Shown piece by piece: positions 4,734-34,642 of a DNA stretch of 64,000 nt (the stretch's first letter is position 1; every line of letters starts with the position of its first letter). Made by a program: the position numbers and the translations under genes. Origin of the DNA: an uncultured Bacilli bacterium (lineage in GTDB: Bacteria; Bacillota_I; Bacilli_A; RF39; UBA660); the NCBI GenBank assembly GCA_934087065.1, contig CAKOIS010000004.1:419-64418 (forward strand). Reading direction: 5' to 3'. Below the pieces are notes generated by a model, which saw nothing but the letters and a program-made list of their open reading frames with translations, searched no databases and had not been told where the DNA came from.

Positions 4734-5420
4734 TTAATTTATTTTCTTAGGTCTACCTCTTTTAGGTTTAGGTTTCTCTTCCATTTTTTCTTTTCTTCTT
4801 CTAGTTGGTAAATCATCTTCTTGTTCTTCTTCTAATTCTTGCATTTTATTTCTTACTTTAATTAGTTTTAATAATTTCATAATATCATAGATTATTACAC
4901 CCATCGCAGGAATAAGTATTACAGTAAACCAACCAAACTTACTAGCTAAGAAGAATTGTACTCTTCCAAGTTGTGGTATTACAAATCTAACTTTACCTAT
5001 AACTTGACTTTGGTCAATCATCTCGTTATCCATAACAGGGTTAGCATCTCCCTTAGTTCTAAATACTATACCATTATTAGTAACATGTTTTTCAACAACT
5101 CTGTGTGTTATTGGAGTTGAACCAAAGAATGAATTAGTACTATAATATGATATAACATCATTTATTTGAATATCTTCTGGATCCATTTTAGCTACAAACA
5201 CAACATCATAAACTGCTATATCAGGTGTCATACTAGGACTTATAATAGTATATAAACCAAGTGGTTGCCTTTGTCCCTTAGCCTGCGCTATTTTATTAAT
5301 TGCAATATATGACAATAAAAACGCACCAATTAAACACAAAATAGCCATAACACACCAAGAAATAGTCTTAGCTATTAAATAAATTACTCCCCTTTGTTTT
5401 TTCTCTTTCATATCTTCCAC
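4734..5420 (-). CDS. sipW: Type I signal peptidase, SipW-like (ER/archaeal type, S26B) with basic C-terminal tail
   Basis: N-terminal TM, catalytic-Ser motif ISPSMTPDI (SipW-type SxSM), C-terminal TM, tail ...KPKPKRGRPKK. Confidence 0.7.
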   Translation of the reverse strand: MEDMKEKKQRGVIYLIAKTISWCVMAILCLIGAFLLSYIAINKIAQAKGQRQPLGLYTIISPSMTPDIAVYDVVFVAKMDPEDIQINDVISYYSTNSFFGSTPITHRVVEKHVTNNGIVFRTKGDANPVMDNEMIDQSQVIGKVRFVIPQLGRVQFFLASKFGWFTVILIPAMGVIIYDIMKLLKLIKVRNKMQELEEEQEDDLPTRRRKEKMEEKPKPKRGRPKKIN

Positions 5421-5587
5421 CTACTATAATTTATTATATAAGATTTTCTTTATTTATACAAGGTAGTTTTTACTATATTTGACAAAATATGACAAATATT
5501 AGCAATAAATAGTACTCGTAAAACACAAAAGTAAATTTATTTTACAAGTAATACATATTTGCAAGAGGAATGATACATATTTATAAT

Positions 5588-5636
5588 ATACAAAAACAAA
5601 GTAAGCTTACTTTTGCTCACTTTGTTTTTTACTATA
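5588..5636 (-). terminator. Bidirectional hairpin terminator at the 3' end of queH
   Basis: aaacaaagt ... actttgttt 9-bp stem flanked by A-run and T-run; overlaps last queH codons. Confidence 0.45.
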
Positions 5637-6209
5637 TATACATCCACAATAGTTTTGTCTATATAAGTTATATTTTTTAGATAATTCCATAGATAATTTA
5701 TATCCTTCTTTTTTCTTAAAGTCTGAATATAAGAATTTTACTTTTGTTAATTCTTCTATATCTTTTCCAATAGCATTTAACACTTGACTATTTTTATATG
5801 GGCTTACTGTTAAAGTAGTACCGAAATATAGAAAGTTATTTTCTTTTGCAGTAAGTGCAGTTTTAATTAGTCTTAATTCATAACATTTATGGCATCTATA
5901 ACCACCCTCAGGTAAATCTTCAAGTCCTTTTGACATGCTTTTAAACTTTTCATTCTCATAGTCACAGTCTAAAAACTTAATGCCAAACTCACTAACTATT
6001 CTTTTTTGTTCTTCTTTTCTTTTTAAGTATTCTTCTAATGGTTCAATATTTGGGTTATAGTAAAATATTGTTACATCAAAATAATCTTTTAATCTTGTTA
6101 TTACAGCAGTAGAGCATGGTGCACAGCAAGAGTGTAAAAGTATAGAAGGCTTACGCCCATTTAACTTGGTAATTATCTCATCCAATACTTTATCATAATT
6201 AGTTTTCAT
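5607..6209 (-). CDS. queH: Epoxyqueuosine reductase QueH (DUF208)
   Basis: LLHSCCAPCS motif and C-terminal CGC cysteines characteristic of QueH. Confidence 0.8.
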   Translation of the reverse strand: MKTNYDKVLDEIITKLNGRKPSILLHSCCAPCSTAVITRLKDYFDVTIFYYNPNIEPLEEYLKRKEEQKRIVSEFGIKFLDCDYENEKFKSMSKGLEDLPEGGYRCHKCYELRLIKTALTAKENNFLYFGTTLTVSPYKNSQVLNAIGKDIEELTKVKFLYSDFKKKEGYKLSMELSKKYNLYRQNYCGCIYSKKQSEQK

Positions 6210-11438: not shown

Positions 11439-12407
11439 TTACTTTTTAATTAAAAATTCAAGAATACTTGTCTTATCTTTATTGCCACTTATTATATCAC
11501 TTACTAAATCAATAATAGGCATTTTAACATTTTCTCTTTTAATTAATTCTTTAATAGACTTTAATGTATATAAGCCTTCTACAGTTGTATTATTTGCATA
11601 CATATTAGCTTCTTCTAACTTACCTTCGCCTATCATTTTACCATAAGTATAATTTCTACTATTTGAGCTAGTACAAGTCATTAAAATATCTCCAAACCCT
11701 GCATAACTTAAAATAGTATTCTTGTTACCACCTAAAGCATCTATTAACTCTTTAATATCATTCAAAGCTTCAGTAAGAAAAAGTGCACGTGTTGAGTCTG
11801 TCACTCCCATTCCACCAAGCATACCAGAGACAATTGCCATAACATTCTTAATTGACCCACATACTTCTACTCCAATTAAATCTGCTGTATCTCTTAACTT
11901 AGTTATATCACTCACCATTAACTTTTTAACTAATTCTTTAGTGCTAGAATTTAATGTTGCAAGAGTAAGTCCAATTGGTACTTCTTTAACAATATCAACT
12001 GCAAATGTAGGTCCACTTATAACAGCAATTTTATTAGTATTCAAATTCTTCTCAACCACATCATTTAAAAACGAACAAGTATCATTTTCTATACCCTTAG
12101 TTGCAATTAAAATATGCATATTTTTTGTTAAATAATTACTAAGTTCTTTAGTTACAGAACTAGCAAACTTTGCAGGTACAGCTATAACAACAAGACTTGA
12201 GTCGCTCACTGCACTCTTGATATCAGTAGTAAATTCTATCCTCTCATCTATCTTATAACTAGGTAATTTATCACTAATTCTAGTACTAACTAACCCGTCT
12301 ATTTCATTTTGATTATTGCTATAACACACAACCTCATTATTATTCTTTATAAATCTACTTGCAAGAGCAAGTCCATATGCTCCACTACCTAATATACAAA
12401 CTTTCAT
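11439..12407 (-). CDS. gpsA: NAD(P)H-dependent glycerol-3-phosphate dehydrogenase
   Basis: MKVCILGSGAYGLALA Rossmann start, GpsA-length, conserved core. Confidence 0.9.
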   Translation of the reverse strand: MKVCILGSGAYGLALASRFIKNNNEVVCYSNNQNEIDGLVSTRISDKLPSYKIDERIEFTTDIKSAVSDSSLVVIAVPAKFASSVTKELSNYLTKNMHILIATKGIENDTCSFLNDVVEKNLNTNKIAVISGPTFAVDIVKEVPIGLTLATLNSSTKELVKKLMVSDITKLRDTADLIGVEVCGSIKNVMAIVSGMLGGMGVTDSTRALFLTEALNDIKELIDALGGNKNTILSYAGFGDILMTCTSSNSRNYTYGKMIGEGKLEEANMYANNTTVEGLYTLKSIKELIKRENVKMPIIDLVSDIISGNKDKTSILEFLIKK

Positions 12408-28371: not shown

Positions 28372-29310
28372 CTACTTTTCACTAAATTCTTCTAAATTAG
28401 TAAATAATTTTACTATATTCTTTTTAGGCACAAGCATATACATTTCTTTATTAATAGTAAAAACAAACTCATTTGTATCATGCCTATACTCTTCTCCATC
28501 AAGCACCCAACTACCTGGATGTTCTTTAAACTTAATCTTAAAATTATTAGTTTTATAATACTCTAAACCCGGCATACTCTTAACTTCACCTGCAAGTATC
28601 TTAGTAGCAAGAGCGATTAACTCTACTTTAGTTTTAGCACTAATCATAAGCACTTCAAACATATCGTCATCAAGTTTTATATCATTATAAATATGACTTA
28701 TTCCACCCATTCTACTAGTATTAGTTACAAACACAAATGAATAAGTTCCACTCTTTTTAACACCATCTATTTCATAATCTAAATCGAATAATCTAACTTT
28801 CCCAGTAAATTCATGAAGTGCATTAAAAATATAAGCTAGTCTTCCATACTTTTTCTTATACGCTCTTGGAGTATTATAACTAACATCAACATAACTACCA
28901 ATACACGCAACATAAACAAATGGAGTATCATTAATCATACAAATATCAACATTCTTTTTAACTCCACTTACAAGCATCTGAACATTAACTATCATATTTT
29001 TAGTATAACCATACATTGTACCAACATCATTCATAGTACCAACAGGAAGTTGTGCCATAACAAGCTTATTCTTTCTCATTAAATTACCTGTTATGCCTTC
29101 ATTTAAAGTACCATCCCCTCCAGCACAAATAACTAAATCAACATCATCTTCTAACTCACTTACTATTCTAGTCGCGTCTTTTGCAGCCTTAGTTGGACAC
29201 ATAACAGTCTCATACTCATTAACTTTCATAATATCAGGAAGTTCTTTAAGATTTTTCTTATCAACAGGTCTTCCACTTTCAGGATTATATATAACTACAC
29301 ATTTTTTCAT
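28372..29310 (-). CDS. Diacylglycerol/lipid kinase (DgkB/YegS family)
   Basis: ICAGGDGTLNE catalytic motif; ~310 aa. Confidence 0.8.
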   Translation of the reverse strand: MKKCVVIYNPESGRPVDKKNLKELPDIMKVNEYETVMCPTKAAKDATRIVSELEDDVDLVICAGGDGTLNEGITGNLMRKNKLVMAQLPVGTMNDVGTMYGYTKNMIVNVQMLVSGVKKNVDICMINDTPFVYVACIGSYVDVSYNTPRAYKKKYGRLAYIFNALHEFTGKVRLFDLDYEIDGVKKSGTYSFVFVTNTSRMGGISHIYNDIKLDDDMFEVLMISAKTKVELIALATKILAGEVKSMPGLEYYKTNNFKIKFKEHPGSWVLDGEEYRHDTNEFVFTINKEMYMLVPKKNIVKLFTNLEEFSEK

Positions 29311-29410
29311 ATTTTAAACGCCTCATAGATATTGTACCAAATTCCTAACTAAAAGTCTATACAAAGAAAAAGAAACAATACCGTTATTTAAAACAAAAAA
29401 CAAGTGTATT

Positions 29411-29451
29411 TTACATTTTGAGAAAGTTTTGTTTTACATTTTGAGAAAAAA
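29411..29451. repeat. Direct repeat TTTTACATTTTGAGAAA x2 (7-bp spacer)
   Basis: Seen directly in dagK upstream / htrA downstream intergenic region. Confidence 0.5.
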
Positions 29452-29477
29452 AGAAAGTCTTAACTTAAAACTTTCTT
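29444..29477 (-). terminator. Rho-independent terminator of htrA
   Basis: aagaaagt-N11-actttctt 8-bp stem followed on minus strand by U7. Confidence 0.65.
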
Positions 29478-29638
29478 AATATTATTTATAATATCATTCA
29501 TATCTAATTCTTCACTAATAAACATATCAACATAATCTATATTTTCTTGATTACCTATAGCTATAATTTTAATATTACTAGATATATCTTCTTTTATAGT
29601 TTGTAAGTTACGAGAAACAACAAAAGAAAAAACTAGGA

Positions 29639-30718
29639 CTACTTGCTTCCTAGTTTAACCTTCAAATCAACTGTCTTACCATTTCTAATAACAGTTATAC
29701 TAATTGTCTCTCCTACTTTATGACTATATAATTGATACCTAAACTCAGCTACATCACTTACTTTATTATCTCCTACTTTAATAATTACATCTTCACTTTG
29801 TAGTCCAGCTTTACTTCCAGCACTATTCTTTTCAACATCAACTACAACTACACCCTCAGTAATATCCTTATCAAGTCTAATTCCTGCATAAGCAAGTTGC
29901 ATTGTACTTGTAGCATTAAGCATACTAACACCTATATAAGGTCTACTAATTTTACCATCTTCTCTTAAACTATTTGCATAATTGATAGCGTCTTCTATTG
30001 GAATAGCAAAACCAATGCCTTCAATAGTGTTCTGAACAATTTTCATACTATTAATTCCTATTACTTCTCCATTAGCATTACTTAAAGGTCCCCCACTATT
30101 ACCTGGGTTAATCGCAGCATCTGTTTGCATAACATTCATAATCCAGTCAGCACTAGAGCCATTTATACTAACACTAACCATTCTATCTTTTCCACTTAAA
30201 ATACCTCTTGTTACAGTACCTCTAAAGTTTTTTCCCATTGGACTACCTATAGTAAACACAGTATCTCCAACTTTAACTTCAGAACTCTTTCCAATAGTCG
30301 CAACACTTTTAATTGTATTTTTATCAACTTTTAAAACTGCTATATCTGCATACTCATCACTTCCTACAACCTTTGCTGTAGTCTCAGTATCATCACTATA
30401 AGTAATATTTATAGTTTCAGCTCCTTCAATAACATGATGATTTGTCATAATATATCCATACTCGTCATCAGTATCATATACAAACCCAGTACCAGTACCA
30501 GCTAAAGTATTCTTTTGATAAGTTTCAATTACAACAACTGAATCTTTAACCTTATCAACACTCTCACTAATACCAGTATCAGTAATATTCACGTTCTTTT
30601 CACTTATTGTCTTAACTACACTATTATTAGGAAACAAATACATTGCTCCTACAACAGCACTTACACCAATTAATAAGCCTATAATTACAGTAACAACATA
30701 ACTTATAAACTTTCTCAT
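29639..30718 (-). CDS. htrA: HtrA/DegP-family serine protease with one PDZ domain
   Basis: N-terminal TM, His/Asp/Ser triad with GNSGGPL, C-terminal PDZ. Confidence 0.9.
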   Translation of the reverse strand: MRKFISYVVTVIIGLLIGVSAVVGAMYLFPNNSVVKTISEKNVNITDTGISESVDKVKDSVVVIETYQKNTLAGTGTGFVYDTDDEYGYIMTNHHVIEGAETINITYSDDTETTAKVVGSDEYADIAVLKVDKNTIKSVATIGKSSEVKVGDTVFTIGSPMGKNFRGTVTRGILSGKDRMVSVSINGSSADWIMNVMQTDAAINPGNSGGPLSNANGEVIGINSMKIVQNTIEGIGFAIPIEDAINYANSLREDGKISRPYIGVSMLNATSTMQLAYAGIRLDKDITEGVVVVDVEKNSAGSKAGLQSEDVIIKVGDNKVSDVAEFRYQLYSHKVGETISITVIRNGKTVDLKVKLGSK

Positions 30719-30731
30719 TTTTACACCTTCC

Positions 30732-31673
30732 TTAATCTAAATACATTATATCTTTATAATTACTTGGAAATCCCATCTTTTCTATTACATCATCTATCTT
30801 AATAGAATTAAGTTTACCACTAAGTCTATCTAACTCATAATTAATTTCATTCATCATCATCTTAAAATCAACATCAGTCAAAAGTCTCTTTAGAATAATT
30901 ATCAAAGCAAATATATCATTCTTACCATTTATATACTCCCCATCTATCTTCTGAATATTCAAAATACTATGATATTTTGTATCTGGTATCATCCTCTGAG
31001 TAAAATGATCAAACGTAACATCCTCATGCGCACATAAATTTCTATAGTTTGCTAGTATTGGTAAATAAGTTTCCATCTCTTCAGGCTCTATTTTATAAAC
31101 ACTTGAAATACTAAATTTATCTTCTTCTTTTAAAATACTAAACATTTCACTAATCAAACCAAAACTAATAACCTTAACACCTATCCATAAAGGAATGTAT
31201 CCATAATTATCCATATAATGGCTTGTCGCACCATGCTGTTTACCATTAACTCTAAACTGTCTTTTAACCTTTCTTAATAAATCATTAATTTGTCTAGCCT
31301 TTTCCTTATCATTATCAAAATTACCTGGATTTAAATAATTCTTTTCTTTAAAACCATAATTCTTACTTAATATATAACTAAATATAGATTTATAGTTATT
31401 CTCAACTATTAAGATATTTTTAAATATAATATTCCTAAACATTCTATCAAACACAAATAAACTATACACCTCATCAAAAGTAGTCCCATCTATAAACTTT
31501 CTAGACGCATCTTTCTTCAAAAACACATGTCTATACCCCATAATAAAGAAGTAATTCTCTCTAAGTAAAACTTCTTTAGTATAAGCTTCATCATTTATAA
31601 TAAGTCCCTTTTCCTTTAATATATTTATTTGTTCATCCAGAGTTTTAAAAACTTTTGCTGTACTCATCCTCAC
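30732..31673 (-). CDS. Abi_2 family abortive-infection protein (AbiD/AbiD1/AbiF-like)
   Basis: N-terminus KVFKTLDEQINILKEKGLIINDEAYTKEVLLRENYFFIMGYRHVF matches the Abi_2 (PF07751) family start; ~310 aa typical length. Confidence 0.65.
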   Translation of the reverse strand: MRMSTAKVFKTLDEQINILKEKGLIINDEAYTKEVLLRENYFFIMGYRHVFLKKDASRKFIDGTTFDEVYSLFVFDRMFRNIIFKNILIVENNYKSIFSYILSKNYGFKEKNYLNPGNFDNDKEKARQINDLLRKVKRQFRVNGKQHGATSHYMDNYGYIPLWIGVKVISFGLISEMFSILKEEDKFSISSVYKIEPEEMETYLPILANYRNLCAHEDVTFDHFTQRMIPDTKYHSILNIQKIDGEYINGKNDIFALIIILKRLLTDVDFKMMMNEINYELDRLSGKLNSIKIDDVIEKMGFPSNYKDIMYLD

Positions 31674-31737
31674 ATCACCTAGAATAATTTTATCACAAAG
31701 GTTAAATTATTACCACTTTTTTCACAAACTTTTCGTT

Positions 31738-31944
31738 TTAGTTTACCTTTTTAATAGGTGGTTTAATAGGCATAATTATAGTTGCAAGTATATAAATAAG
31801 TAATCCACTTCCATAAACACATGACAAAATCACCCATAATAATCTAATTAAAGTAACATCTATATCTAAGTATTCACTTATTCCCATACATACACCACTA
31901 ATCATTTTACCTTCATTAACTCTATATAATTTCTTATTTTTCAT
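31738..31944 (-). CDS. PspC-domain membrane protein
   Basis: MISGVCMGISEYLDIDVTLIRLLWV PspC motif + TM. Confidence 0.7.
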   Translation of the reverse strand: MKNKKLYRVNEGKMISGVCMGISEYLDIDVTLIRLLWVILSCVYGSGLLIYILATIIMPIKPPIKKVN

Positions 31945-32433
31945 ACTCTACCTCCACATAAATATAATTACTTCTTATATAGTTACTAACCTTATCATTT
32001 AAAGTGTGCATATACCGATTTAACAAGCTAACTATATAATCACTTCCATACTTTCTTACTACCATTAATTCTACCACATTTAGCTTTCTAAATAAAGAAA
32101 AAACTTTACTTTAAATTAAAACTAAAACAAACACATTTTTATTTAAATACTATAATATTAATTAAGTATTAACTACTAACTCAAATATATTTAATAAATT
32201 AATTTTATAATCATAAACACATTACCTAAGTAACTTATTAGCATCTATATATATTCCATAATAACCTACAATTTTTAAACATTTTATATTTCCAACACTT
32301 CAAACCGAAAAACTTTACATTTTCACATACTTTTTCGGTAAAAAGCACAAAAACTTTGTATATTTAGAAACTTTTTATACTTAAAGGTATATTAAAAGGA
32401 AGTGGAACAAATTCCCCTTCCTTAAATAAATTA

Positions 32434-32832
32434 CTATCTCTTACTGAATTGTGGAGCACGTCTAGCTTTCTTAAGACCATATTTCTTACGTTCTTTAATT
32501 CTAGCATCTCTAGTTATCATACCAGCACCTTTTAAAGTAGGTCTATAACCTTCACTATCAACTTCAATTAAAGCTCTAGCAATACCTAATCTAATAGCAC
32601 CAGTTTGTCCACTAAAACCTCCACCTTTAACAGTAACTTCAATATCATATTGACCATCAGTTCCTGTAAGTACAAGTGGTTGTTTTAAATCCATTACTAA
32701 AGTATCATAAGGCATATATTCATTAACATCAACACCATTAACGATAATACTACCTTTACCACTAGTCATTCTAACTTGAGCTACACTTCTTTTTCTTCTT
32801 CCTGTAGCTGTATAAACTTTCTTATCTGCCAT
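32434..32832 (-). CDS. rpsI: 30S ribosomal protein S9
   Basis: Conserved uS9 sequence ending ...[10 protein letters not shown]. Confidence 0.95.
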
Positions 32833-32840
32833 AATTCCTC

Positions 32841-33269
32841 CTATAATTCAATCTTTTCAGGCTTTTGAGCTTCATGATTATGATTTTCTCCTTCATAAAC
32901 AAATAACTTCTTGTACATTTGTCTACCAAGTCTATTCTTAGGAAGCATTCCTTTAACAGCTCTTTCAACCATTTCAACTGGATATTGTTCTTTCATAACC
33001 TTAGCAGTTCTTTCTCTTAATCCACCTGGAAATCCACTATGATTATAATATACTTTCTTATTTAATTTGTCGCCAGTTAAATTAACTTTACCAGCATTTA
33101 CTATAATAACTGCATCCCCACAATTAATATGAGGTGTAAAAGTTACTTTATGTTTACCACGTAAGATATGTGCTGCCTTAACTGCAACTTTACCTAAAGT
33201 TTCACCCTCAGCATCAATTAAATACCATTTTGTAGAAACATCTTCATTTCTTAACATAAATGTTTTCAT
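32841..33269 (-). CDS. rplM: 50S ribosomal protein L13
   Basis: Conserved uL13; start assigned to internal Met ([20 protein letters not shown]) matching the uL13 N-terminus; six-frame ORF extends to 33353. Confidence 0.9.
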
Positions 33270-33538
33270 ATAAATTCTCCTTCTTAATTTTCTATCCTTA
33301 TATATAAGACTTCCCACATCCACATACAAAGATAATTTATAAAAATGTACCAAGAATAATTATACAATAACACATATGAAAAAATCAAGCATAAAATAAC
33401 ACTTTTTACCTAAAACTAGCAAAAAAAATAACCATTTTAACTAAATTTACCCATTTATACAAAACTTTAGTTGACAAACACCAAATAAAATAATAAAATT
33501 ATAATAGAAAAGAAGAGTAAAAATTGGAGGAATTAAAT

Positions 33539-34642
33539 ATGAAAAAGAAATCAAATGCACTTGTATATATACTTTTATTTTTAATAACTATATGTTTAGC
33601 TGGAGGAATTGTTGGTCTAATGGCAAAGAAAAGCGGAGTAAATAATAACTCTGATACAAAAAAAGATCCGAAAGACTTCAAAATAACTTACAAATACTAC
33701 TTAGATGGTGAAGAAGTAAGCGAAATGATTAAACAAGACACAATTCAAGTAGAAAACTCAGAATTTGAAGGTGTAATGGATAAAAAAGATTTATACACAT
33801 ATGATAAATACACTTGTACTAATGAAGTAACTGGTTCTTGGAATAATGAAGAATGGACATTTACTCCAGAATTAACTGCTGACACAACTTGTAGACTATA
33901 TTTCTTAAAAAACTTCCATGAAGTAACAGTAAACACTACTAATGGGTTACTTCCAAACAATACTAATACACAAAAATTCCTAATAGAAAGAAATAACTCA
34001 AAAATAACAAACGTAATTCCAACTGAAGGATATAAAATAGACACGACTAACTTAAAGTGTACTAACGAAGTAAATGCTGTATATAACGAAGAAACAAAAG
34101 ACTTAACAATATCTAATGTTAACAAAGATAGCATTTGTACTGTACCTTTTGCAATAAGAGGCTATGAAGTAGAAATTCAAGTTTCAATGGGAGAAGCTAA
34201 AGAAACTAAAAAAACAGCTAACTTTGGAGACACAGTAACATTTGAAACAACCCCACTTGAAAATTACATATTTGATACAGTTAACTGTACTAACAATCAA
34301 GTTGCAGAATTCGACCAAGTAAGTAACATACTTTCAATAAAAAATTTAAATAACGATACAAAATGTGTAGTACAATTTAAACAAAACAAACATCAAGTTA
34401 GCCTAAAAGTTGTAGGTGGAGCATTAGTTAATGTTAAATCACCTTTATCAGTAGACAACAATGGAACAGCTGTGTTTCCAATAGACAAAAACGAAGGATA
34501 CAAATACACTGGAGCTAAACTAACATGTGATGGAGTAACAGTTGAAAGTGAATTAAGTAGCAACATCTTAAAAATTAAAAATGTAACACAAGACTTAAAC
34601 TGCACATACACTTTAGCAGAAGATACAACTGAAAGCGAATAG
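33539..34642 (+). CDS. Membrane-anchored surface protein with four ~80-aa Cys-pair repeats (Ig-like), unknown function
   Basis: GGAGG RBS before Met-6 (MKKKSNALVY); N-terminal TM; four repeats each with C-T-N-[EQ]-V and C-x-V-x-F motifs. Confidence 0.5.
   Translation: MKKKSNALVYILLFLITICLAGGIVGLMAKKSGVNNNSDTKKDPKDFKITYKYYLDGEEVSEMIKQDTIQVENSEFEGVMDKKDLYTYDKYTCTNEVTGSWNNEEWTFTPELTADTTCRLYFLKNFHEVTVNTTNGLLPNNTNTQKFLIERNNSKITNVIPTEGYKIDTTNLKCTNEVNAVYNEETKDLTISNVNKDSICTVPFAIRGYEVEIQVSMGEAKETKKTANFGDTVTFETTPLENYIFDTVNCTNNQVAEFDQVSNILSIKNLNNDTKCVVQFKQNKHQVSLKVVGGALVNVKSPLSVDNNGTAVFPIDKNEGYKYTGAKLTCDGVTVESELSSNILKIKNVTQDLNCTYTLAEDTTESE

Follow-up and report, generated by a model that had tools for sequence, protein, structure and literature searches.

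An AbiF/AbiD-family gene conserved upstream of htrA in an uncultured Bacilli lineage and probably lacking a cis-encoded RNA antitoxin

The abi-htrA Pair

The stretch of DNA analyzed here, referred to below as the window, comprises 64,000 nucleotides from an uncultured Bacilli bacterium (contig CAKOIS010000004.1 of assembly GCA_934087065.1, positions 419 to 64,418), and it contains two adjacent genes, abi and htrA, that are the subject of this work. The first gene of the pair, abi (30732..31667, stop codon included, minus strand), codes for a 311 amino acid protein of the AbiF/AbiD family (Pfam Abi_2) with a HEPN fold; the second, htrA (29639..30718, minus strand), codes for a membrane-anchored serine protease with Trypsin_2 and PDZ domains (degP_htrA_DO subfamily, E = 5e-81). 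The two are separated by a 13-nt spacer (30719..30731, minus strand; GGAAGGTGTAAAA), inside which the htrA ribosome-binding site is found. An earlier note on this DNA had described the same gap between same-strand genes and had proposed that they are probably co-transcribed; the gap is exactly as described, and the arrangement of the sequence supports the predicted co-transcription.

The open reading frame (ORF) originally listed for abi covers 30732-31673 on the minus strand and would begin with GTG to give 313 amino acids. The ORF is real, but its start has to be moved: abi almost certainly begins at ATG 31667, and GTG 31673 is disfavored, because the homologues are all 309-311 amino acids long (78 species) and the Shine-Dalgarno sequence AGGTGA (31675..31680, minus strand) lies 7 nt before this ATG; its distance from the GTG is only 1 nt. 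An exact-sequence look-up of the 313 amino acid, GTG-initiated form gave no match, which also pointed to the ATG. Either AGGTGA or AGGAGA is conserved at the Shine-Dalgarno position among the orthologues.

Abi is a member of the Abi_2/AbiD-F family by both sequence and fold. The search against PF07751 that the earlier note had called for yielded a match to Abi_2 at E = 2.4e-38 (132.7 bits, with a cut-off of 25.6), spanning profile positions 1-183 of 184 and residues 34-221 of the protein, and the PADLOC AbiD model aligned to residues 5-310 (E = 4.2e-56); a search of the protein against NCBIfam gave no match. The N-terminal signature from which the family had first been recognized lies inside both the AbiD model and the alignment to Protein Data Bank (PDB) entry 8vz6, but the first ~30 residues are outside the Pfam model. 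This PDB entry ("Abi family protein") is the sole solved relative by sequence (phmmer, E = 3e-17, residues 7-301). An AlphaFold2 monomer model of Abi, built on an alignment of 50 orthologues, has a pLDDT of 93.4 and a pTM of 0.90; it has the all-helical AbiF/HEPN fold and superposes on 8vz6_A ("PbAbiF dimer bound to ncRNA"), which was the only significant PDB match in a Foldseek search (TM 0.79/0.82, 24% identity). Cas13d chains were next in the ranking but were not significant (E > 0.2). The HEPN catalytic motif, R209-N-L-C-A-H214 (AGA AAT TTA TGT GCG CAT; 31026..31043, minus strand), follows the R-x4-6-H pattern of the superfamily; R209 is retained in 77 of 78 species, the other having lysine, and both N210 and H214 are present in all 78. 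The GC and GC3 contents of abi are like those of the neighboring genes.

Distribution and Synteny

In order to avoid circularity, only the window HtrA was used as the query in a survey of one genome per GTDB species, which retrieved 79 loci with HtrA identities of 46-98%. An Abi orthologue was found by tblastn directly upstream of htrA, and on the same strand, in all 79 species genomes. The earlier note had taken abi for an old, domesticated, single-gene phage-defense insertion, and had suggested scoring presence and absence at orthologous pspC-htrA loci, with universal conservation beside htrA as the outcome that would speak against it. Old and domesticated both stand, but the idea of a solitary defense insertion gives way to that of a core gene: abi is universal (79/79), and it is pspC, its upstream neighbor in the window, that is rare (6/78). 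Among the names attached to the 79 loci are Clostridium sp. CAG:628, CAG:1000, and CAG:524, together with many "uncultured Bacilli/Tenericutes/Mollicutes" metagenome-assembled genomes (MAGs). CAG-1000 is a family within the GTDB order RF39 (PMC8035907), and we infer that the whole set, a lineage of low-GC gut Bacilli, belongs to RF39 and its relatives.

All but one of the 79 abi copies are intact. The exception, L093 (CP091739.1, 6930-9100), is a complete-chromosome MAG in which abi has at least five frameshifts in a protein sequence that is otherwise fully conserved; these are probably long-read assembly errors at homopolymers and not signs of pseudogenization. The htrA gene of the same genome gave only a partial tblastn match.

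Orthologues at 99, 85, 77, 72, 69, and 67% identity share the gene order dus, a hypothetical gene, rplM, rpsI, a variable segment, abi, and htrA. The spacing between the abi stop and the htrA start was measured at 92 loci, a few of them duplicates within a species; the large majority fall at 6-16 nt, and 8-9 nt is the commonest value. A separate scan of metagenome contigs, anchored on Abi instead of HtrA, added 80 further loci, 77 of them with enough sequence, and htrA directly follows abi in 75 of these 77. In the remaining two, abi is intact but has no adjacent htrA: in L110 (abi at 1803-2732) a cation ATPase gene comes next, after 131 nt, and in L166 (abi at 4983-5936) the next gene codes for a CAP/SCP-domain protein. 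Retention of Abi is thus independent of an adjacent htrA. In the most divergent representative of the clade (P0121, 57% identity) abi overlaps htrA by 4 nt, and the neighborhood is different, with Amidase_3 upstream and no rpsI; as the two genes have stayed together despite other flanks, the conserved unit is the abi-htrA pair. The P0121 contig (L185) also carries a spore-coat CotZ gene (11493-11912), and the pair may therefore reach beyond non-sporulating RF39-type genomes into a sporulating relative.

Evolutionary Rate and Selection

Unlike an accessory defense gene, abi is a vertically inherited core gene under strong purifying selection; we conclude this because its synteny is universal, it diverges together with HtrA and the ribosomal proteins, and its substitutions are predominantly synonymous. 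Across 78 species, 81 of 311 alignment columns are invariant in Abi and 28 of 359 in HtrA. Nonsynonymous divergence (dN, Nei-Gojobori) was compared in 2926 species pairs and is lower for abi than for htrA in 99.9% of them (medians 0.26 vs 0.41), the two being correlated at r = 0.89; in pairs with unsaturated synonymous divergence (dS), the dN/dS ratio omega ranges over 0.017-0.055 in abi and 0.03-0.18 in htrA. Median identities to the window proteins are 66% for Abi, 54% for HtrA, 73% for S9, and 75% for L13, so that the rate of abi falls between those of HtrA and the ribosomal proteins; Abi identity correlates with that of S9 and L13 at r = 0.87-0.93. A sliding 15-codon scan of the nonsynonymous to synonymous ratio (pN/pS) detected no diversifying patch in abi (maximum 0.50), and the most constrained segment of the gene is the region of the HEPN motif (0.04). 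The usual attributes of the accessory genome, i.e., patchy presence, a mobile or defense context, and fast turnover, are all missing from abi.

Conservation of abi might of course be a by-product of its position. If htrA had no promoter of its own and were translationally coupled to abi, loss of abi would silence htrA, and abi could persist as a locked-in passenger without any function. The short spacers (6-16 nt), the 4-nt overlap in one lineage, and the placement of the sole promoter-like box upstream of abi would all fit. However, lock-in would allow decay by point mutation, yet Abi shows 81 invariant residues, a retained R/H dyad, an omega of 0.02-0.06, and stronger conservation than HtrA; furthermore, abi is intact in the two contigs where htrA is not adjacent. 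The passenger explanation has already been largely refuted by purifying selection, and we give it almost no credence.

A second possibility is that Abi has evolved from AbiF into a regulator that binds RNA without catalysis, engaged for instance in post-transcriptional control of htrA or of an envelope-stress regulon. Many basic residues are invariant (K5, K20, R36, R46, R75, R78, K83, K93, K133, K135, R136, and K165), AbiF is known to bind structured RNA tightly (PMC12737573), and one species has the lysine at R209 mentioned above. Nevertheless, R-N-x3-H and the flanking E215 and D216 are essentially invariant, and a pN/pS of 0.04 is the pattern expected of a catalytic site, which makes a purely RNA-binding role quite improbable.

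Nearest Relatives of the Clade

Relatives of Abi were drawn from a library of 50%-identity representatives, in which 5344 family members were found at E <= 1e-3. The abi clade accounts for one full-length representative (57% identity), and the next matches are at 42% or below. The four nearest outgroup clusters that could be placed are all in mobile or defense contexts, and none of the four has htrA as a neighbor: P0126 (42% identity to the window Abi) adjoins a CHAP/LysM endolysin gene, P0272 (41%) adjoins a large serine recombinase gene, P0277 (38%) adjoins GmrSD and an integrase gene, and P0134 (38%) lies within a phage portal/protease/capsid module. Among the viral contigs of IMG/VR, 164 relatives of the outgroup family were confirmed, and a scan of the same contigs with clade-specific peptide patterns found no clade Abi. 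GenBank phages and PLSDB plasmids contained Abi relatives at no more than 32% identity.

Upstream Region and Leader RNA

An extended -10 promoter-like box, TGATAAAAT (31687..31695, minus strand), identified by consensus match only, is located 19 nt upstream of the abi start. It was recognized by comparative alignment of 77 upstream regions, in which 75 of 77 orthologues have a TGnTAnAnT box at a median of 23 nt (range 17-33) before the start; a promoter and terminator consensus scan of 29300-32900 performed no better than on shuffled sequence and missed this conserved box. About 30 nt further upstream, and in the subclade of the window only, an alignment made by eye shows a second box, GAAAAGTTTGTGAAAA, with the core TTGTGA (31722..31727, minus strand), which is possibly a candidate regulator or UP-type site. 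A second copy of the GTATGTGAAAA box, AAAAGTATGTGAAAATG, lies within 32308-32335 (minus strand) in the rpsI-pspC spacer, just after the rpsI terminator. The presence of box copies at both places suggests that insertion of pspC duplicated or split the ancestral abi promoter region. One locus without pspC (L016) retains the 3' end of pspC, "GTAAACTAA", ahead of the box.

Characterized AbiF systems are type III toxin-antitoxin (TA) modules that consist of a promoter, a structured noncoding RNA (ncRNA) just upstream, and the toxin gene; the ncRNA binds the HEPN dimer and blocks its non-specific single-stranded RNase activity (PMC12373285; PMC12737573; PMC13064643). The Rfam model for the abiF motif, RF03085, had no match in the whole window at the gathering score, none at E <= 10 within 29300-32900, and none in four whole orthologous loci, and a regular-expression search for the motif in 2 Mb of fetched loci was also negative. 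As a positive control, RF03085 was found upstream of the phiC2 abiF at 37.6 bits, and the regular expression recovered both of its copies. RF03085 was missing from the near outgroups as well, and a comparison of leader length and hairpins was therefore used instead.

In six near mobile relatives (L174, L175, L178, L179, L180, and L183), a GC-rich hairpin and U-run separate the upstream region from the start codon. A TTGACA/TATAAT-type promoter could be placed in three of them (L174, L175, and L180), ~70-85 nt upstream of the start and ahead of the hairpin. No hairpin was found between the -10 box and the abi start in any of the 77 clade members. A hairpin with a U-run ending 8-70 nt upstream of the start was present in 1 of 77 clade loci vs 23 of 35 dereplicated viral relatives, and the single clade case is an rpsI terminator at a locus with a mis-assigned start. 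In roughly half of the species the start of abi follows rpsI at a distance of 98-180 nt (mostly 110-140 nt); where rpsI adjoins, the rpsI terminator, the promoter-like region, and a short leader together take up the whole intergenic region. A search within abi itself for an RNA element was also negative, synonymous-site conservation reaching at most 1.28 times expectation vs 1.19 times in htrA. The arrangement that defines a type III TA module, a cis-encoded structured ncRNA between promoter and toxin gene, is not present at abi. We consider the cis RNA antitoxin to have probably been lost in the abi clade because the promoter-like box is near the start codon, there is no leader hairpin and no embedded signal, and the gap between rpsI and abi is fully accounted for.

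The alternative that bears most directly on these results is a conventional AbiD/F abortive-infection or type III TA system that became fixed in the lineage, its antitoxin RNA being encoded in trans or else too divergent or too short to be recognized, and its protein killing or arresting the cell upon phage infection. Abi is a full-length AbiD/F member with an intact Rx4H dyad, its nearest relatives are borne by phages or other mobile elements, and every AbiD/F member studied experimentally is toxic and neutralized by RNA (PMC12373285; PMC13064643; PMC12737573); the failure of RF03085 to match the leaders of near outgroups further indicates that unknown RNA types exist. Yet the space upstream of abi is too short to accommodate a leader RNA, and no RNA signal is embedded in the gene. 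Universal presence at a single locus, divergence in step with ribosomal proteins, and the lack of a diversifying segment are atypical of defense genes. The study of C. difficile reports that abiF/abi_2 are patchy within species (PMC12373285), and the clade patterns found nothing in IMG/VR viral contigs. We judge this alternative unlikely, but it is a serious rival.

The near mobile relatives share, between promoter and start codon, a common leader composed of GUAGAUCRAG, a GC-rich hairpin, and a U-run, which RF03085 does not match (L174, 5940-5985; L175, 5925-5975; L180, 4265-4305; L183, ~700-760; L179, 835-872). This leader is possibly a form of AbiF antitoxin RNA that has not been described before.

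Genes around the Pair

The ancestral upstream neighbors of abi are rplM and rpsI (32434..33269, minus strand; L13 and S9 by Pfam). In the window, pspC (31738..31944, minus strand; 68 amino acids, PspC domain by Pfam) lies between rpsI and abi, and is preceded by a noncoding rpsI-pspC spacer of 489 nt (31945..32433, minus strand) that begins with the rpsI terminator hairpin, has no Rfam match, and can be aligned only in the closest relatives. The earlier note had listed pspC and an AT-rich leader of ~490 bp as preceding abi; both are there, but neither is in the conserved unit, since just 6 of 78 species have pspC upstream of abi, and abi has a promoter-like box of its own. Both pspC and the spacer are recent, lineage-restricted additions. 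PspC was accordingly rejected as a partner of Abi. HtrA was also rejected as its partner or antitoxin: HtrA is anchored in the membrane by its N terminus with an extracytoplasmic protease domain, Abi has no signal peptide, and abi is intact in L110 and L166.

Between rpsI and abi lies a hotspot for insertions, which holds, according to species, a chloramphenicol acetyltransferase (CAT) gene, a gene for an ABC ATPase, pspC, or small hypothetical ORFs, with abi-htrA remaining fixed (cargo at 5026-5664 in L004-L006, 4265-5914 in L012, and 4712-5886 in L007). Past htrA by ~160 nt is a possible AT-rich terminator hairpin (29445..29477, minus strand; AAGAAAGT...ACTTTCTT with a T-run), which was picked out by eye, is weak, and received no call in the terminator scan of 29300-32900. 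An exact 17-nt direct repeat, TTTTACATTTTGAGAAA, occurs at 29409-29425 and 29432-29448 with a spacing of 23 nt; this pair of repeats, between the terminator-like hairpin and the start of dagK, could be a regulator site for the downstream dagK-psd genes. On the plus strand, 33524-34642 codes for a 372 amino acid membrane-anchored protein that has no significant Pfam domain in the window copy and only a faint match to Flg_new_2 in orthologues from some relatives; the gene is kept between dus and rplM in most of the relatives examined, and its product appears to be a lineage-specific conserved surface protein.

That there are no mobile-element genes nearby, as had been remarked at the outset, was borne out. 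All Pfam matches among the ORFs scanned at 13.7-48.5 kb are to cellular families (ZIP, RNase R, GT2, PSD, DAGK, L13, S9, Dus, LysRS, Clp-type AAA, SSB, and others); none is to an integrase, transposase, or other mobile-element or defense family, and four ORFs have no match at all. The 64-kb window has no second copy of Abi_2 and yielded nothing in a tRNA scan, and no CRISPR-like repeat array is present at 27-36 kb.

Discussion

At the system level, abi is without two hallmarks of AbiF type III TA and abortive-infection defense, namely, a cis-encoded ncRNA and accessory, mobile behavior. Our preferred explanation, which we hold to be reasonably probable, is that abi represents an AbiF-type toxin that has been fixed as a core gene of an abi-htrA operon without a cis RNA antitoxin. 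Its ancestor would have been the AbiF-type type III toxin of a phage or other mobile element, equipped with a promoter and a structured antitoxin leader RNA. In the ancestor of the clade, abi would have inserted between rpsI and htrA, then shed the leader RNA, retained a promoter ~20 nt from the start codon, and become fixed; strong purifying selection would have acted ever since, with retention of the Rx4H dyad. By homology with PbAbiF and AbiFCd, the protein may be a homodimeric HEPN RNase that cleaves single-stranded RNA. Its activity might be restrained in several ways, alone or combined: weak or conditional expression in common with that of the envelope-stress protease HtrA, a post-translational or other trigger, or a narrowed substrate specificity. 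The role could be one of stress-coupled RNA turnover or growth arrest throughout the lineage, and it might still be protective during phage attack. We favor such a cellular role over the classical abortive-infection role because of the universal retention of abi, its ribosomal-protein-like rate, and the lack of diversifying patches. A more specific version, in which an AbiF-type HEPN toxin was exapted in an order-level gut lineage into a core RNase without an RNA antitoxin, formed one expression unit with HtrA, and became an RNA-processing or stress-response enzyme, is offered only tentatively.

Several points weigh against the fixed-toxin explanation. The cellular role, RNase activity, dimerization, co-transcription, and mode of control of Abi are all inferred, and the hosts are uncultured. 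The promoter of abi-htrA is a prediction, and read-through from upstream is possible. The sample is one of 79 species, not the whole order, and every HtrA relative retrieved, down to 46% identity, was accompanied by abi; i.e., the boundary of the clade was not reached. The IMG/VR scans for the clade and the outgroup used different peptide patterns and are not strictly symmetric. With RF03085 absent from near outgroups too, its absence alone carries little weight, and an RNA antitoxin encoded in trans is possible elsewhere in the genome, the search having covered the 64-kb window and loci of ~17 kb. Lastly, universal conservation by itself leaves a defense role possible.

A universal, RNA-less clade that evolves slowly, at nearly the rate of ribosomal proteins, implies that AbiD/F proteins, of which all those characterized are accessory, mobile toxins restrained by a cis RNA, are capable of taking on a lasting function in the host, and it constitutes a natural experiment on the taming of HEPN toxicity. 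If the more specific version above is correct, the lethality of a toxin was tamed by change in the protein rather than by an antidote, and AbiF would have been domesticated twice independently, once here and once on the way to Cas13, helping to explain how evolvable the scaffold is. In practice, pipelines of the PADLOC type will report "AbiD" for each genome in the lineage and so inflate the defense counts of RF39-like gut bacteria, and annotations of the abi-htrA pair should mark it as probably non-canonical. Although its hosts are uncultured, Abi is small, confidently modeled, and amenable to heterologous work.

Comparison with Known Systems

No description of a core AbiF clade that is linked to htrA and lacks the RNA turned up in a search of the literature, which also gave nothing relevant on Abi_2 with htrA or on domesticated HEPN/Abi genes. 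One large neighborhood survey observed that genes for post-translational modification are sometimes downstream of abi_2, with nothing further on such linkage (PMC12373285).

The closest structural comparison is to PbAbiF-AbiFr, a Prevotellaceae AbiF with its ncRNA (PDB 8vz6; Zilberzwige-Tal et al. 2025, as cited in PMC12737573 and PMC13064643). PbAbiF and the window Abi are of the same family and fold, are both ~300 amino acids long, and have the R-N-x3-H HEPN motif at equivalent positions. As it is described in those citing papers, however, PbAbiF is a type III toxin neutralized by a cis-encoded upstream ncRNA, whereas in the window the gene follows directly upon its promoter-like box with no leader RNA between them, and abi is a core, vertically inherited partner of htrA in a predicted operon. 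Much the same can be said of AbiFCd-RCd22 of the C. difficile prophage phi027/phiC2, an Abi_2 protein ~28% identical to Abi. AbiFCd is predicted to be a homodimer, and its toxicity needs R202 and H207, which correspond to R209 and H214 of the window protein (PMC12373285). The contrast is again in the setting: abiFCd is in a prophage lysis module carried by 38% of strains and has a 168-nt leader with two abiF motifs (RF03085) and a terminator (PMC12373285), none of which is found in the window or its orthologues.

The plasmid-borne AbiD/F systems also belong with Abi in the AbiD/F group (AbiD of PADLOC), and their HEPN proteins are ~300-350 amino acids in length. Phage resistance has been demonstrated for these systems, which need their upstream sequence in order to function, and this sequence exceeds the gene itself in conservation; abi differs in being a chromosomal core gene whose upstream region contains promoter-like elements only.

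Cas13 proteins, the effectors of type VI CRISPR systems, are proposed descendants of AbiF. The window Abi is not a type VI effector, which would have two HEPN domains and an adjacent CRISPR array; it is a single HEPN unit of ~310 amino acids with one Rx4H, there is no CRISPR array near the gene, and there is no guide RNA. The relationship is a distant one through the HEPN fold, and conceptually there is a parallel, as each would be an AbiF-type toxin recruited to a stably inherited role.

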